Positions 35,551 through 38,759 of a stretch of DNA of 38,759 nucleotides are shown in pieces. Positions within the stretch are counted from its first letter, which is position 1; each line of letters starts with the position of its first letter. Source of the DNA: Escherichia phage mEpX2. The position numbers were made by a program, and so were the translations under genes. Under the pieces are notes generated by a model. It was not told where the DNA came from, did not search any database, and saw only the letters and a program-made list of their open reading frames with translations. Location of the stretch: the sequence record NC_019705.1; one strand, given 5' to 3'.

Positions 35551-36010
35551 TCAACGTAAGGCGTTCCTCGATATGCTGGCATGGTCAGAGGGAACTGATA
35601 ACGGACGTCAGAAAACCAGAAATCATGGTTATGACGTCATTGTAGGCGGAGAGCTATTCACTGATTACTCCGATCACCCTCGCAAACTTGTCACGCTAAA
35701 CCCCAAACTCAAATCAACAGCCGCCGGACGCTACCAGCTTCTTTCCCGTTGGTGGGATGCCTACCGTAAGCAGCTTGGCCTGAAAGACTTCTCTCCGAAA
35801 AGCCAGGACGCTGTGGCATTGCAGCAGATTAAGGAGCGTGGCGCTTTGCCGATGATTGATCGTGGTGATATTCGTCAGGCAATTGACCGTTGCAGCAATA
35901 TCTGGGCTTCACTGCCGGGCGCTGGTTATGGTCAGTTCGAGCATAAGGCTGACAGCCTGATTGCAAAATTCAAAGAGGCTGGCGGAACGGTCAGAGAGAT
36001 TGAGGTATGA
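35534..36010 (+). CDS. R: endolysin (lambda R-like lytic transglycosylase)
   Basis: 158-aa ORF overlapping holin stop. Confidence 0.9.
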
Positions 36011-36444
36011 GCAGAGTCACCGCGATTATCTCCGCTCTGGTTATCTGCATCATCGTTTGCCTGTCATGGGCTGTTAATCATTACCGTGATAACGCCATTA
36101 CCTACAAAGCCCAGCGCGACAAAGCCACATCCATCATCGCTGACATGCAGAAGCGTCAACGTGATGTAGCAGAACTTGACGCCAGATACACAAAGGAGCT
36201 TGCTGATGCTAACGCGACTATCGAAAGTCTCCGTGCTGATGTTTCTGCTGGTCGTAAGCGCCTGCAAGTCGCCGCCACCTGTGCAAAGTCAACGACCGGA
36301 GCCAGCAGCATGGGCGATGGAGAAAGCGCAAGACTTACAGCAGATGCTGAACTCAATTATTACCGTCTCCGAAGTGGAATCGACAGGATAACCGCGCAGG
36401 TTAACTACCTGCAGGAGTACATCAGGACTCAGTGCCTGAAATAA
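36007..36444 (+). CDS. Rz: i-spanin Rz
   Basis: 145-aa ORF with N-terminal TM segment and coiled coil, after endolysin. Confidence 0.85.
36206..36391 (+). CDS. Rz1: o-spanin Rz1 (embedded in +1 frame of Rz)
   Basis: Lipoprotein signal [20 protein letters not shown] followed by proline-rich segment, entirely within Rz. Confidence 0.7.
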
Positions 36445-36475
36445 TTTTTTGCAAATCACAAAGTCCATTTAATGA

Positions 36476-36498
36476 GCCTCGCGATGCGGGGCTTTTTT
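36476..36498 (+). terminator. intrinsic terminator after lysis cassette
   Basis: GCCTCGC-GAT-GCGGGGC hairpin followed by TTTTTT. Confidence 0.55.
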
Positions 36499-36648
36499 AT
36501 GTCCGCAGTAAACGCGCATTCTCGTGCGCATATCAACCAAGAGCTTTTCGGGATATGAGACAGAGACAGGACGGTGGCTTACATCGTGCCGCTCTTGGGC
36601 TGTCCATGTCTGCGAGAACTGGCTCATATCACCAAAAAGGTAAATACG

Positions 36649-37377
36649 ATGTCCAATATCATCCCGATTGATTTCGAAGGCCATCCCATGCGTTTTTCTG
36701 ACGATGGCTGGTTTGACGCGACTGCGGCAGCTGACAAGTTCAACAAGGAGCCGGCTCAGTGGCTTAGGCTTCCTGAGACTGTCCGTTACATCGAGGCGTT
36801 AAAGAGTAGATATGGGAATATCACATATGTAAAAACCAGCCGCGCTCGCAAAGACCGTGGCGGCGGAACATGGCTTCACCCAAAACTGGCGGTCAGATTT
36901 GCTCGATGGCTTTCTGTAGATTTTGAGATCTGGTGTGATGAGCAAATTGACGCAATCATTCAGGGTTCCGTTCATCATATCGACGATGAAAGAATAAAGG
37001 CTATTTTCCTTCTGGATAAATCTCAGCCATGGGAAAAGAGGTTTAGCGATCCGTTTTATTCTGCGATGTTCAAAATGTCAGGGCTGCCCCGTCATCGACC
37101 AGGTCGTCGCCCCGCACTATTTGGGATGATCAGTGCCAAGTGGGTATATGGCCAGGTATTACCACCAGAAGTATATGCAGAGGTTAAAAGACGGCTGGCT
37201 GCGGGAGACAAAATCCATCAGCACCTTAAACCTGACGCGCTGACATTGGTTGAGCGACAGATCATTGCCGTTACCAGCATTGCCAATGGGTGCTCTGATT
37301 ATCGTGATTTCGAAGCGCGTTGCATGTCGGCATTCCCGGTGAAAGGGCAGATGAAATTGCTCTATGCGGCGGCCTGA
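36649..37377 (+). CDS. KilA-N/Bro-N-like domain protein
   Basis: 242-aa ORF; N-terminal FEGHPMRF..DGWFDATAAADKF pattern. Confidence 0.55.
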   Translation: MSNIIPIDFEGHPMRFSDDGWFDATAAADKFNKEPAQWLRLPETVRYIEALKSRYGNITYVKTSRARKDRGGGTWLHPKLAVRFARWLSVDFEIWCDEQIDAIIQGSVHHIDDERIKAIFLLDKSQPWEKRFSDPFYSAMFKMSGLPRHRPGRRPALFGMISAKWVYGQVLPPEVYAEVKRRLAAGDKIHQHLKPDALTLVERQIIAVTSIANGCSDYRDFEARCMSAFPVKGQMKLLYAAA

Positions 37378-37379
37378 TC

Positions 37380-37637
37380 ATGAGCACCCGAATAATAGAA
37401 TGCGCCTCCAGAGCGGGGCGCGACTTCTCAGAGTTCATGAAAGGCGAGAAGGGCATGATGGAAGCATTGGCCTCGGTGGATGAGTTTGGCGAGCAACTCC
37501 GTATTAACGGTTGCGTCAACCATCACTTTGTCAGCTACATGATGCGGAACTCGATCATGCAGGCATTCATGGACATGGCAAAAGCCGAGAGGAAAGAAGA
37601 GCGCCGGCGTAAGCGAGCGGAAGCAAAAGCGAAGTAA
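37380..37637 (+). CDS. hypothetical protein with basic C-terminal tail
   Basis: 85-aa ORF whose ATG follows the upstream stop by 2 nt. Confidence 0.45.
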   Translation: MSTRIIECASRAGRDFSEFMKGEKGMMEALASVDEFGEQLRINGCVNHHFVSYMMRNSIMQAFMDMAKAERKEERRRKRAEAKAK

Positions 37638-38029
37638 CCATTACAAAGCTCATCTGCGGGTGGGCTTGATAATGAAACCGGAGTTAATTTCTGGTCACTA
37701 ATTAACGGCAGCACCGCGAAACAACCCAAGCCAGAAAGTGGGGAAATAACACTGGCAGCCACTGAAAGATAAACCTCCTGCCTTATGGCAAAAAAGATTC
37801 TTTGTGGTGGCTGACTGATGGAAAGACATCGGTTATTGCAGAGACCATTCAATGAGTGGTCTCGACAATGGCTTATACCCTGCACGGGATAACTTAACTG
37901 ATATCCCTTTTAACGGATAAACGGAGCCAACAATGGCAGAGATTATTCTCATGACTGAAGAACAGAAATTCCAGTTAGAGATTTACAAACTGGTCATGAA
38001 CCAGAACGCCGCCGTGCATGGAGACTGGC

Positions 38030-38371
38030 ATGAACAAAGAGCCCCGCGTATATGGCAGCCGATGGGATAAGGCCCGTCTGCGTTTTCTCCAGCAGCACCC
38101 ACTGTGTGTGATGTGCGAGCAGCAGGGGCGCATAACACCAGCAACGGTGGTCGACCATATCGTGCCCCACAAACTGAAAGATGCGCTTAAGTCAGGTAAC
38201 CCTCTGGCCATATCGAAAGCACAGCTCCTGTTCTGGAGTAAAGAGAACTGGCAGCCACTGTGCAAAGCGCATCATGACTCAACGAAACAGAGAATGGAGA
38301 AGAGCGGCGCGGTAATCGGTTGTGATGCCAACGGCTACCCGCTCGATCCTGCGTCTCACTGGAGCACGTAA
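38030..38371 (+). CDS. HNH endonuclease (terminase-associated)
   Basis: ORF with CxxC...H...CxxH HNH-type motif; SD GGAGA; upstream of terS as in HK97-like phages; alternative start 38018. Confidence 0.75.
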   Translation: MNKEPRVYGSRWDKARLRFLQQHPLCVMCEQQGRITPATVVDHIVPHKLKDALKSGNPLAISKAQLLFWSKENWQPLCKAHHDSTKQRMEKSGAVIGCDANGYPLDPASHWST

Positions 38372-38574
38372 TGAAAGACCTCATCATTGAATACCGAGAC
38401 GGTAAGTTTGTTCAGCTGGCGATTGATGGCGTGGAGATGAAGCGCGTAACGTCTATCCAGTTCTCCCACACCTTAGGCGAGGACGTACCGACATTGACCG
38501 TGTCAGGACATGTGTGGTCCGAGTATGGGAAAGGCGATCACAAACTCGAACAGGTAGACAAACATTCGGCATAG
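38371..38574 (+). CDS. hypothetical protein
   Basis: 67-aa ORF with ATGA overlap to HNH stop. Confidence 0.45.
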   Translation: MKDLIIEYRDGKFVQLAIDGVEMKRVTSIQFSHTLGEDVPTLTVSGHVWSEYGKGDHKLEQVDKHSA

Positions 38575-38759
38575 CGCGGCGGCGGCAAGTCGATTATCTA
38601 TCATGTGAAATCATTTCAAATGCAACGATATCAAATGAGAATGAATCGCATTCATGGCAGGGGGGGGGATCAAATCTTCAAAACCTTTGCCCTAAATGAC
38701 CGCCGCCAAAGTTTGAATTTAACGCTAACCCGATTTTTTTAGTTTTAAGGTGTTGACAT
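38575..38759. other. putative cos/packaging region and terS ribosome-binding site
   Basis: Non-coding segment between last ORF and terS; contains a 9-G run (38660-38668) and GC-rich motifs GCGGCGGCGGC / GACCGCCGCC; SD AAGGTG at 38744-38749. Confidence 0.3.

Follow-up and report, generated by a model that had tools for sequence, protein, structure and literature searches.

A mobile KilA-N gene pair and a conserved, folded non-coding stretch in a late-operon accessory slot of Escherichia phage mEpX2

Related loci and the place of mEpX2 among them

Accessory genes that lie between essential modules in cassettes bordered by hairpins are known from phage morons, the PeSL cassettes of T4 and integron attC sites, and the locus described here is arranged likewise. 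Morons of HK97 and HK022 were reportedly described by Juhala et al. in 2000. A classical moron differs from this locus in having its own promoter and terminator, neither of which was found for the mEpX2 pair, and the comparison with T4 PeSL and attC is limited by the absence of a recombinase from the mEpX2 locus and by its hairpins, which lie in a late operon and have no U tract. Closer counterparts are found in other lambdoid phages. HK97 gp73, HK022p55-p56 and the pair of the mEp-series phages are orthologues of the mEpX2 genes (97-100% nucleotide identity) at the same position between Rz and a gp74-type HNH gene, but HK97 differs from mEpX2 by a +1 frameshift in the small gene, which stands beside an intact KilA-N gene. 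The hkbK-hkbL pair of HK620, present also in Dewey and many IMG/VR prophages, encodes a small protein that is 96% identical to the one in mEpX2, is coupled to a KilA-N gene and is followed by the same hairpin (H1) and conserved core described below. Its upstream protein is different, however, being a 165-aa KilA-N + ORF11CD3 protein without P63C that is 22% identical in the KilA-N part, and its stop codon overlaps the start of the small gene, whereas the two mEpX2 genes are separated by 2 nt. In P22 and phi80, the same slot, which follows the lysis genes and immediately precedes the core, is occupied by Rha, a member of the Bro network that differs from the mEpX2 pair in its Phage_pRha DNA-binding domain, in having no small partner and in showing no sequence similarity to the pair. 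Henthorn and Friedman reportedly found in 1995 that Rha is non-essential and that phage growth is inhibited by its product when the host is deficient in IHF.

Two further precedents concern the small protein and the non-coding DNA. CapR, encoded by the PLE of Vibrio cholerae, is a transcriptional repressor that consists of a stand-alone T5orf172-related N-terminal DNA-binding domain (PMC8096241). It is the closest precedent for a free T5orf172 N-domain with a regulatory role, although it is likened to the small mEpX2 protein by description and differs in its host and element, being encoded by a satellite and not in a phage late operon. For the non-coding DNA, the precedent is P22G, which was seen as a discrete small RNA of P22 by small-RNA sequencing in one study (PMC13397905). 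Nucleotides 49-204 of P22G align to positions 37695-37848 of mEpX2 with 146 of 156 nt identical (94%), on the same strand and at the same position relative to the second hairpin (H5), but P22G starts inside rha, which is absent in mEpX2, and the mEpX2 counterpart is a candidate RNA.

The DNA analysed here is a 38.8-kb window (the whole stretch, 38,759 nt) from an HK97-like lambdoid phage of E. coli, and positions 36400-38100 match Escherichia phage mEpX2 (PV340544) at 100% identity. The region under study is a variable accessory slot in the late operon. Upstream on the same strand are the genes for antiterminator Q (PF03589, E 2e-57), a holin and Rz (PF03245, E 8e-36), and downstream are an HNH gene and then the terminase. 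The upstream border and the genes are as follows.

36474-36502, + strand: terminator-like hairpin and T run just 3' of Rz, upstream border of the variable slot
36649-37377, + strand: KilA-N + P63C gene (gene 1, 242 aa), homologue of HK97 gp73 and HK022p55
37380-37637, + strand: gene for an 85-aa protein with three predicted helices and a basic tail (gene 2), homologue of the N-domain of T5orf172/MUG113 proteins by profile comparison
37933-38070, + strand: remnant ORF of 45 aa, N-terminal part of a DUF2560/P22 Orf80 gene, overlapping the HNH gene
38018-38371, + strand: HK97 gp74-like HNH endonuclease gene, start of the packaging module

The terminator scan found at 36474-36494 a hairpin whose 9-bp stem has six GC pairs, followed by TTTTTT, and the annotations of mEpX1 and HK75 give a rho-independent terminator at the equivalent post-Rz site. 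At the other end of the slot, the HNH gene (Pfam HNH PF01844, E 1.3e-5; phrog_2323, E 3e-53) is annotated in HK75 as similar to HK97 gp74. The 45-aa remnant matches positions 2-24 of the 72 in Pfam DUF2560 (E 2.5e-9) and is cut near 38014 by a mosaic junction, where the homology to HK620 hkbM stops. A consensus scan of the + strand from 35900 to 38759 found no sigma-70-like sites, though a weak or non-canonical promoter could escape such a scan, and neither scanning nor reading of the sequence gave a promoter within the non-coding region. The occupants of the slot differ among related phages, which carry Rha, Rha + ORF11CD3, KilA-N + ORF11CD3, T5orf172, Tad2-like, gp49/66 or NUMOD4-HNH genes there, or nothing. 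Of 120 loci, 9 have a T5orf172 protein in the interval from Rz to the conserved core and about 20 have no tested occupant gene there, and in P22 pid is nearby. The interval between Rz and the HNH gene, called a known moron hotspot of lambdoid phages in the sequence-only reading made before our analysis, is thus borne out as a variable accessory hotspot.

The KilA-N gene and its 85-aa partner

Gene 1 encodes a putative DNA-binding protein of the KilA-N/APSES type that also carries a helical P63C domain. KilA-N (PF04383) covers residues 8-105 (80.2 bits against a cut-off of 23.8, E 1.2e-22) and P63C (PF10546) residues 117-192 (43.9 bits against a cut-off of 26.1, E 3.7e-11), the N-domain adopts an APSES-like DNA-binding fold, and the full-length architecture is common to more than 100 homologues among the matches listed. 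The KilA-N-P63C profile found no match among PDB sequences, and a search of the literature on KilA-N + P63C, HK97 gp73 and P63C found nothing relevant.

The TGA of gene 1 (37375-37377) is followed after 2 nt by the ATG of gene 2 (37380), whose product ends in the basic tail KAERKEERRRKRAEAKAK. This protein matches phrog_875 (E 1e-53) and has no match in Pfam. It belongs to a tiny enterobacterial family (137 clusters in a 90%-identity database, 21 representatives among 1.84 billion proteins) whose members, down to 54% identity, have the same length and share 19 invariant residues. The predicted structure (pLDDT 89.6) has helices at residues 3-20, 26-42 and 48-84, and Foldseek searches of the model against the PDB and BFVD returned generic helical hairpins only (E > 0.1). 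Alignment to the T5orf172 protein family with hhalign gave a probability of 97.2% (E 3.4e-11, 75 columns), a significance that is reached only with the family profile, as a single T5orf172 sequence gave 17%. Further links to T5orf172 are two HMM matches (P0252 and P0255) and a match to phrog_4284 (E 3e-6). By these profile comparisons, the 85-aa protein is homologous to the N-domain of T5orf172/MUG113 proteins (GIY-YIG superfamily) but exists on its own. It stops after that domain, and as the C-terminal nuclease-like domain is absent and Pfam gives no T5orf172 match, it is best described as a relative of one T5orf172 domain and not as a member of the family. A putative zinc site (C8, C45, H48 and H49) was considered and dropped, as these residues are not kept in T5orf172 N-domains. 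The sequence-only reading had already recognised a 242-aa KilA-N-like protein, a basic-tailed 85-aa ORF and the 2-nt spacing between them, all of which hold, with P63C now added; its suggestion of a regulator or antirepressor also agrees with our analysis, in which gene 1 belongs to the Bro/KilA/Rha domain network.

In all 86 loci that carry the 85-aa gene, it is preceded by a KilA-N gene. The upstream neighbour is the 165-aa KilA-N + ORF11CD3 ORF, with overlapping stop and start, in 70 loci and a KilA-N + P63C ORF, with a 2-nt gap, in 12, and the remaining four have an end-cut or frameshifted copy of one of the same two KilA-N proteins, which share only 22% identity with each other. The pair is retained in Trabulsiella, also with a 2-nt gap (48% and 54% identity), and it is located within tail gene clusters in Klebsiella KP12 and a Raoultella MAG. 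KilA-N + P63C genes without the 85-aa partner occur in Klebsiella, where they form a cluster of 1038 members, and in Yersinia, the KilA-N + ORF11CD3 gene lacks the small gene at 17 loci, and HK75 has only a truncated KilA-N gene, whose ORF reads into the non-coding region. Because each gene is found apart from the other or beside a broken partner, and the slot is empty, truncated or frameshifted in some viable phages, the pair is a mobile, optional late-operon cassette and not a toxin-antitoxin pair; it is also an ordinary accessory cassette that has already been annotated. As an 85-aa protein of 96% identity stands beside KilA-N proteins that are so different, and KilA-N occurs alone elsewhere, a direct complex between the two proteins is not required.

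The conserved non-coding stretch

Between gene 2 and the remnant ORF lie 295 nt (37638-37932) that form a conserved folded stretch with two covarying hairpins, the constant 3' border of the slot. The features in it are listed below.

37639-37674, + strand: hairpin H1, first copy of the motif, starting 1 nt past the stop codon of the 85-aa gene
37695-37833, + strand: conserved non-coding core, homologous to the P22 sncRNA P22G
37830/37831, no strand: insertion point of a second accessory cassette, from split BLAST alignments and the mEpX1 sequence
37834-37870, + strand: hairpin H5, second copy of the motif, from covariance model R1
37886-37911, + strand: small conserved hairpin, inverted repeat GGGATA-N10-TATCCC (37886-37907) followed by TTTT

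The folding z-score of the stretch is -6.09 on the + strand and -2.95 on the - strand, and of 515 windows across the genome, the two with the most negative RNA-folding z-scores fall within it. Parts of it are present in 206 phage records and in 2577 of 5426 (47%) complete E. coli genomes, and it persists between unrelated flanks in phages of E. coli, Salmonella and Shigella. No + strand ORF of at least 30 aa was found in it, and its - strand ORFs, including one of 43 aa, do not have a third-position substitution pattern. Relatives have a 35-codon + strand ORF at 37785-37892, which is unbroken in 52 of the 53 and has lost its ATG in 6 of 53 sequences; it was rejected as a gene, as it has no Shine-Dalgarno sequence and is broken in mEpX2. 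Rfam gave no match up to E 1 in 36300-38759 save one at chance level, and ARAGORN found no tRNA or tmRNA. STnc6030 of phage BTP1 comes from a different locus.

H1 and H5 share a motif of the form YATTRCA-(9-10 bp stem)-loop-stem-GAYAATG, of which there appears to be no earlier description. Covariance model R1 scores H1 at 51.8 bits (E 3.6e-11) and H5 at 58.2 bits (E 7e-13), and these are its only significant matches in the window, both on the + strand. Across the hairpin family, 98.6% of the stem positions are paired, double changes occur at 9 of 15 pairs, compensatory changes span at least six stem classes, and the covariation score is 0.526, compared with 0.269 for shuffled and about 0.1 for slid alignments. 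The mEpX1 variant of H5 preserves its stem through three double changes, and in some other variants the outer 5-bp stem is broken. G-U pairs make up about 15% of the paired cells, so the pairing fits the + strand only. When the motif was matched by its flanks alone, 38 of 41 matches could fold, and in related phages the motif is located 1-45 nt past the stop codons of many unrelated accessory genes. H1 of mEpX2 has no U tract and does not qualify as an intrinsic terminator; in KP12 and Raoultella, the same cassette ends with a GC hairpin and a T run. Many phages, mEpX1 and Huey among them, carry a second cassette inserted at 37830/37831, which consists of 33 nt, a gp49/66-family gene (PF13876) and a hairpin of its own.

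The core between the hairpins is about 95% conserved in HK97, HK620, P22 and Shigella POCJ13, amid unrelated flanks. The multibranch structure that RNAalifold predicts for it lacks compensatory changes, since no copy is less than 94.5% identical, and its conservation could reflect recent spread. The 3' end of P22G maps inside the 5' arm of H5 and not at the base of the hairpin, which fits cleavage better than simple exonuclease protection.

The inverted repeat, with its 6-bp stem and 10-nt loop, was not called by the terminator scan, and some phages have other sequence in place of the T run. The hairpin forms in the MFE structure and in the centroid structure alike, its pairs persist in 27-30 of 30 sequences with no changes other than to G-U, and P22 retains the GGATA/TATCC arms around a different loop. 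As 61% of 295-nt shuffles contain at least one 6-bp inverted repeat (3-20 nt spacer), the repeat taken alone is not beyond chance; the stretch in its entirety, however, is far from random, with five such seeds where the shuffle mean is 1.17. The sequence-only reading had found no convincing ORF in this stretch, as is confirmed here, and had suggested that a small RNA might arise from it, which is supported by the detection of the homologous P22 stretch as P22G. Its inverted repeat is real in sequence but had been placed at 37888-37910, off by 2-3 nt, and in singling out this repeat it passed over stronger features, namely the two covarying hairpin copies and the wide conservation.

Interpretation and rival explanations

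In our favoured interpretation, to which we give a probability of roughly 0.55, the locus is a late-operon slot that holds a mobile, regulator-like gene pair and is closed on its 3' side by a conserved stretch acting as RNA. Gene order and a simple promoter scan suggest that both genes would be read late only, by Q-modified RNA polymerase passing the terminator after Rz. Translation of gene 2 would be coupled to that of gene 1, and during lytic growth the two proteins may have a regulatory, DNA-binding role of the Bro/KilA/Rha (antirepressor-like) kind, both probably being dispensable for plaque formation. The non-coding stretch would work inside the late transcript, where the post-stop hairpins without a U tract may be processing or decay-blocking structures and the core between them may, like P22G, accumulate as a stable small RNA. 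The stretch could also supply the homology through which differing cassettes are exchanged. A further-reaching proposal, which we regard as tentative, is that the hairpins and core represent an undescribed class of cis-acting RNA that organises this hotspot in lambdoid and P22-like phages, and that the 85-aa protein is a CapR-like domesticated DNA-binding domain. The RNA elements would then set the processing and stability of any accessory gene plugged in before them and release a conserved small RNA, and the 85-aa protein would be the DNA-binding domain of a homing endonuclease that now serves, with KilA-N proteins, as a late regulator.

Several other explanations have to be weighed against these. 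It is unlikely that the 85-aa gene is a decaying, functionless remnant of a T5orf172 homing endonuclease and the 300 bp of non-coding DNA recombination debris that spread recently. Decay would be consistent with the homology of the protein to the N-domain of the T5orf172 proteins that occupy this slot elsewhere, the HK97 frameshift, the core that lacks covariation, the 35-codon ORF broken in mEpX2 and the truncated KilA-N ORF of HK75 that extends into the region. However, the length, the invariant residues and the KilA-N-coupled start of the 85-aa gene are maintained down to 54% identity, the hairpins show compensatory changes in at least six stem classes, and the stretch contains the most extreme folding z-scores of the genome and persists amid unrelated flanks in phages of three host genera. 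The hairpins might instead act as DNA, being targets of recombination or of an endonuclease through which cassettes are mobilised in the manner of integron attC sites or homing, and they do mark the 3' borders of swappable genes in a hotspot shared with homing-type nucleases (NUMOD4-HNH and T5orf172). Conserved flanks and variable stems are features of attC sites as well. We give this little credence, as the G-U pairs would be A-C mismatches on the opposite strand, the covariance model copies are on the + strand only, the left junction of the gp49/66 insertion is outside any hairpin, and the locus has no associated integrase or recombinase.

For the gene pair, the sequence-only reading had also raised a defence function and a toxin-antitoxin-like module, and neither found support. 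A prophage anti-phage or abortive-infection module, in which the KilA-N protein senses or binds foreign phage DNA and the small protein modulates it, has a precedent in BstA, which is prophage-borne and has a KilA-N-like domain (PMC8585504). The Tad2-like (anti-Thoeris) gene that occupies the slot in other phages indicates that the locus takes part in defence conflicts. Against this, PADLOC-DB 2.0 gave no significant full-length component match for the gene pair, only short, weak local ones to PDC-S22 (30 residues, E 9e-5, 19.6 bits) and QatB (E 0.017), no promoter-like site was found, and the genes lie behind a terminator in the late operon. BstA differs in its C-terminal domain, which is P63C here, as well as in genomic position and expression state, and no model gave a significant match. 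It is said to adjoin the repressor and to be expressed in lysogens, and on balance a BstA-like role is improbable. A pair consisting of a KilA-type toxin and a coupled small protein that neutralises it is more doubtful still. P1 KilA is lethal upon expression, the two genes are tightly coupled at 2-nt spacing, and they move as a unit through four different genomic contexts, but the KilA-N + P63C genes of Klebsiella and Yersinia and the 17 KilA-N + ORF11CD3 loci do without the small gene, HK97 has an intact KilA-N gene next to a frameshifted partner, and no known toxin or antitoxin family was matched in Pfam, NCBIfam or PADLOC.

The gene pair becomes easier to study now that its small ORF has a link to the N-domain of T5orf172 nucleases and the pair has proved optional. 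The non-coding part has a wider reach, as the hotspot that it borders carries anti-defence (Tad2-like) genes, antirepressor-like genes and homing nucleases. If the non-coding part controls mRNA processing or cassette exchange, it would help to explain how late accessory genes are expressed and shuffled in these phages, and the P22 small RNA P22G would gain a function.

Gene order around the accessory cassette

Over 36400-38100 the sequence matches Escherichia phage mEpX2 (PV340544) at 100% identity and HK446, mEp506, HK97, HK022, mEpX1, and mEp234 at 97-99%. All local genes lie on the + strand: antiterminator Q upstream of the lysis genes (PF03589, E 2e-57), holin, endolysin, Rz, the gene pair with its non-coding stretch, a 45-aa ORF, an HK97 gp74-type HNH endonuclease, and a 67-aa ORF, with the terminase starting just beyond the window end. 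The features considered here are as follows:

36474-36502, +, terminator-like hairpin and T run 3' of Rz, annotated as a terminator in mEpX1 and HK75
36649-37377, +, gene 1, 242 aa, with KilA-N (residues 8-105) and P63C (residues 117-192) domains
37380-37637, +, gene 2, 85 aa, with a Lys/Arg-rich tail
37639-37674, +, H1, first copy of a hairpin motif, 1 nt past the stop codon of the 85-aa gene
37830/37831, insertion point of an extra cassette, based on mEpX1, Huey, and many other phages
37834-37870, +, H5, second copy of the hairpin motif
37933-38070, +, 45-aa ORF overlapping the start of the HNH gene

The sequence-only reading had proposed a 242-aa KilA-N-like protein followed 2 nt later by a basic-tailed 85-aa ORF, and each part of this held: the KilA-N domain was found in gene 1, whose TGA ends at 37377, and the ATG of gene 2 is at 37380, opening an ORF that runs to 37637. 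The mEpX2 record annotates the two as "KilA-N-P63C" and "hypothetical protein", and both are orthologues of annotated, uncharacterised genes of HK97 and HK022 (gp73 of HK97 for gene 1). An alternative in-frame GTG at 36574, the start used in the mEpX1 annotation, would give a 267-aa product; the ATG at 36649 is favoured by the PHROG profile and by most homologues (about 240-250 aa). Of a DUF2560/P22 Orf80 gene, the 45-aa ORF retains just the initial ~27 codons; a mosaic junction near 38014 fuses them to unrelated sequence. Further downstream, the gap preceding the terminase gene contains a nine-G run (38660-38668), close to the position at which cos is annotated in HK75; in P22 a ten-G run (locus L008, about 2015-2030) lies shortly 3' of its copy of the conserved non-coding element.

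In lambdoid phages, Q-modified polymerase passes terminators and reads from the late promoter into the head genes. A + strand scan for sigma-70-like sites across 35900-38759 found none, and because the cassette lies co-oriented between the lysis and packaging genes, it is most likely expressed late. Rz and the KilA-N gene are separated by 204 nt (36445-36648) that include the terminator-like hairpin, and the equivalent P22 gap, between gene 15 and rha, yields the small RNA P22F (PMC13397905).

A KilA-N gene and its 85-aa partner

The full KilA-N and P63C architecture of gene 1 is common to more than 1100 proteins from Enterobacterales, Gilliamella, Xenorhabdus, Providencia, Alcaligenes, Delftia, and Acinetobacter. 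Its AlphaFold2 model has two domains (pLDDT 85.5), and a sequence search for a solved structure detected none. The 85-aa family is very small, with 137 clusters in a set of 5.8 billion proteins and 21 representatives among 1.84 billion, and its named members are all from Enterobacterales except for one short contig binned as Candidatus Nanosynbacter. Gene 2 matches phrog_875 and no Pfam family; its model (pLDDT 89.6) consists of three helices, the last extending into the basic tail, and structural neighbour searches with it returned nothing informative. The family profile aligns with the first ~77 residues of T5orf172/MUG113 proteins of the GIY-YIG superfamily (160-175 aa; hhalign 97.2%, E 3.4e-11), and in other phages these proteins fill the identical slot between Rz and the conserved non-coding core. 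Based on the alignment and this shared position, the 85-aa protein is a free-standing copy of their N-terminal module. A free N-module acting as a DNA-binding repressor has a precedent in PLE CapR (PMC8096241). The C-terminal tail of the family varies through extra Ala-Lys repeats, giving proteins of 85, 87, 89, 91, 93, and 95 aa (window 37600-37637; loci L027, L028, L037, L048, and L062), a pattern suggestive of slippage within a short repeat close to the stop codon.

Among 86 loci with the 85-aa gene, its immediate 5' neighbour always encodes a KilA-N protein. In 70 loci this is the 165-aa KilA-N and ORF11CD3 protein (HK620 hkbK), whose stop codon overlaps the start codon of the 85-aa gene; in 12 it is a KilA-N and P63C protein with a 2-nt gap; and in the remaining four it is an end-cut or frameshifted copy of either type. 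The two KilA-N types are only 22% identical to each other, while the 85-aa proteins beside them are 96% identical. A Trabulsiella prophage has both genes, again 2 nt apart (48% and 54% identity) and directly 5' of a Nu1-like terminase, and in Klebsiella phage KP12 and a Raoultella MAG the pair is found within tail gene clusters. As it is retained in these settings, the pair moves as a unit.

The slot from Rz to the core is variable and optional, and Bro-network DNA-binding proteins, nucleases, and anti-defence genes make up most of its occupants; the loci were collected through the 85-aa gene or a 25-nt exact core match, so occupant counts come from biased samples. In phage Huey (L009, 992-1492), a Tad2-like gene (Thoeris anti-defence 2, PF11195) stands between Rz and H1 in place of the KilA-N pair, and therefore anti-defence genes use the same slot; such a gene is also found there in 6/120 other loci. 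Some prophages (L124, 5007-5663; L154) have longer arrays, including a 65-aa ORF and a NUMOD4-HNH_3 homing-type endonuclease, with a hairpin variant of its own after each cassette.

A conserved, + strand-specific structured element borders the slot

The 3' border of the slot is a conserved structured element specific to the + strand. The stretch 37638-37932 had been described as having no convincing ORF, in agreement with which it holds no + strand ORF of at least 30 aa. Its + strand folds with an MFE of -100 kcal/mol compared to -70.8 for shuffled sequence (z -6.09), against a z of -2.95 for the - strand. In a scan of the entire window (515 windows of 150 nt; mean z -0.44, sd 1.29), the two most extreme values were at 37801-37950 (z -6.39) and 37726-37875 (z -6.10). 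The stretch is present in 206 phage records, HK620, P22, and Shigella phage POCJ13 among them. Its P22 copy starts at the final codons of rha, and that of POCJ13 is placed between a Rha-like gene and the terminase; in these three phages its flanks are unrelated. Part of the query 36649-37932 is found in 2577 of 5426 complete E. coli genomes, mostly, among the matches sampled, as the 3' non-coding part (many just 37834/37854-37921), while only 11 of the 5426 have the full cassette. One such short match, in an E. coli O157:H7 prophage (L224, 2501-2568), covers the H5-H6 part of the element, H6 being the inverted repeat described below (window 37854-37921), and lies in a 675-nt gap from the lysis genes to the DUF1441/terminase genes; roughly half of complete E. 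coli genomes have matches like it. A 35-codon + strand ORF (MAKKILCGGGLMERHRLLQRPFNEWSRQWLIPYTG, 37785-37892) crosses H5, ends at a TAA within the downstream inverted repeat, and is intact in 52 of 53 related sequences. The window copy is broken by a G to T change at 37812 that makes TGA. The ORF has no Shine-Dalgarno sequence, its ATG is lost in 6/53 sequences, and the truncated KilA-N ORF of HK75 shares its frame and stop codon.

Both H1 and H5 have the layout YATTRCA, a 9-10-bp stem, a loop, the return stem, and GAYAATG; when folded, each has an outer stem of 5 bp and a variable inner stem, separated by a CA/GA internal loop. In the 38.8-kb window, a covariance model made from 24 variants found only these two sites, both on the + strand (E 3.6e-11 for H1 and 7e-13 for H5, rough values from a shortened calibration), and it found 167 sites in 100 related loci. 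The variants have 98.6% of cells paired and changes on both sides in 9 of 15 pairs, with a covariation score of 0.526, compared to 0.269 after shuffling and about 0.1 when partners are slid. G-U pairs make up about 15% of cells, and therefore only the + strand folds well. When sites were picked by their flanks only, 38 of 41 unique sequences had an inner stem of 8 bp or more without interruption, and the selection bias is small. There are at least six inner-stem classes, and the motif lies 1-45 nt 3' of the stop codons of unrelated genes (85-aa, gp49/66-family, Rha and ORF11CD3, other Rha, T5orf172, Tad2-like, NUMOD4-HNH endonuclease, and DUF551). The extra cassette at 37830/37831 has a 33-nt leader, then a gp49/66 gene, and lastly a hairpin variant of its own, whose stem is preserved by three double changes. 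The KilA-N/85-aa cassettes of KP12 and Raoultella, which sit elsewhere than the late lysis-packaging junction, end instead in a GC hairpin and T run.

Between the hairpins, the core (37695-37833) is 94% identical to nt 49-204 of P22G and is its counterpart here. P22G is a 204-nt + strand RNA seen in a single small-RNA sequencing study of P22-infected Salmonella and vesicles, and described as having "no known function" (PMC13397905); its 3' end corresponds to window 37848, within the 5' arm of H5. RNAalifold on 30 sequences gave a multibranch core structure with few broken pairs and no compensatory changes, as the sequences are at least 94.5% identical, so the core structure rests on thermodynamics and conservation. 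The sequence-only reading had also pointed to a GGGATA-N10-TATCCC inverted repeat (H6), which is present at 37886-37907, slightly displaced from the position assigned to it. A 6-bp repeat alone is at chance level, occurring in 61% of shuffles of the stretch. H6 is retained in relatives with G-U changes only (its loop differs in P22), and the T run after it is not conserved.

Alternatives and a proposed role

One explanation of the gene pair, raised previously, is a toxin-antitoxin-like module. KilA-N and P63C genes lacking an 85-aa partner are found in Klebsiella (a cluster of 1038 members) and Yersinia, also between the lysis genes and terminase, and 17 loci have the KilA-N and ORF11CD3 variant alone. 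In HK97 (L002, 2486-2746), one additional G after codon 53 of the 85-aa gene causes a +1 frameshift that yields the 77-aa HK97p61; the insertion may be genuine or stem from an old sequencing error. HK75 retains a truncated KilA-N gene and nothing else of the pair, and in about 20 of 120 loci the interval from Rz to the core lacks every occupant gene tested for. Because of these partnerless, broken, and empty loci, the pairing is not obligate and the cassette appears to be dispensable, which speaks against a toxin-antitoxin pair, the least probable of the explanations we weighed. A BstA-like defence module and a role of the hairpins as DNA-level recombination sites are both improbable, though slightly less so, and functionless remnants, the strongest of these alternatives, are unlikely too.

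We instead favour a reading in which the cassette would be transcribed late, the 85-aa gene would be translated through coupling, and both proteins would act on DNA as an antirepressor- or regulator-like pair. This may work via contact with the KilA-N domain, the sole feature common to both neighbour types of the 85-aa gene. By position, the closest functional analogue of the genes is Rha of P22 and phi80. The hairpins may be processing or decay-blocking structures in late mRNA, the core may accumulate as a P22G-like RNA, and the conserved stretch may serve as a homology anchor for cassette exchange. We place the probability of this overall picture at roughly 55%, and that of any specific target far lower.

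Rfam holds no family matching the RNA element, and in the literature we covered, which was incomplete, we found no description of the 85-aa family's relation to the T5orf172 N-domain, of its constant placement after a KilA-N gene, or of a hairpin motif family at cassette 3' ends. As originally posed, the region is an ordinary accessory region, and it is the RNA element that carries its moderate interest.
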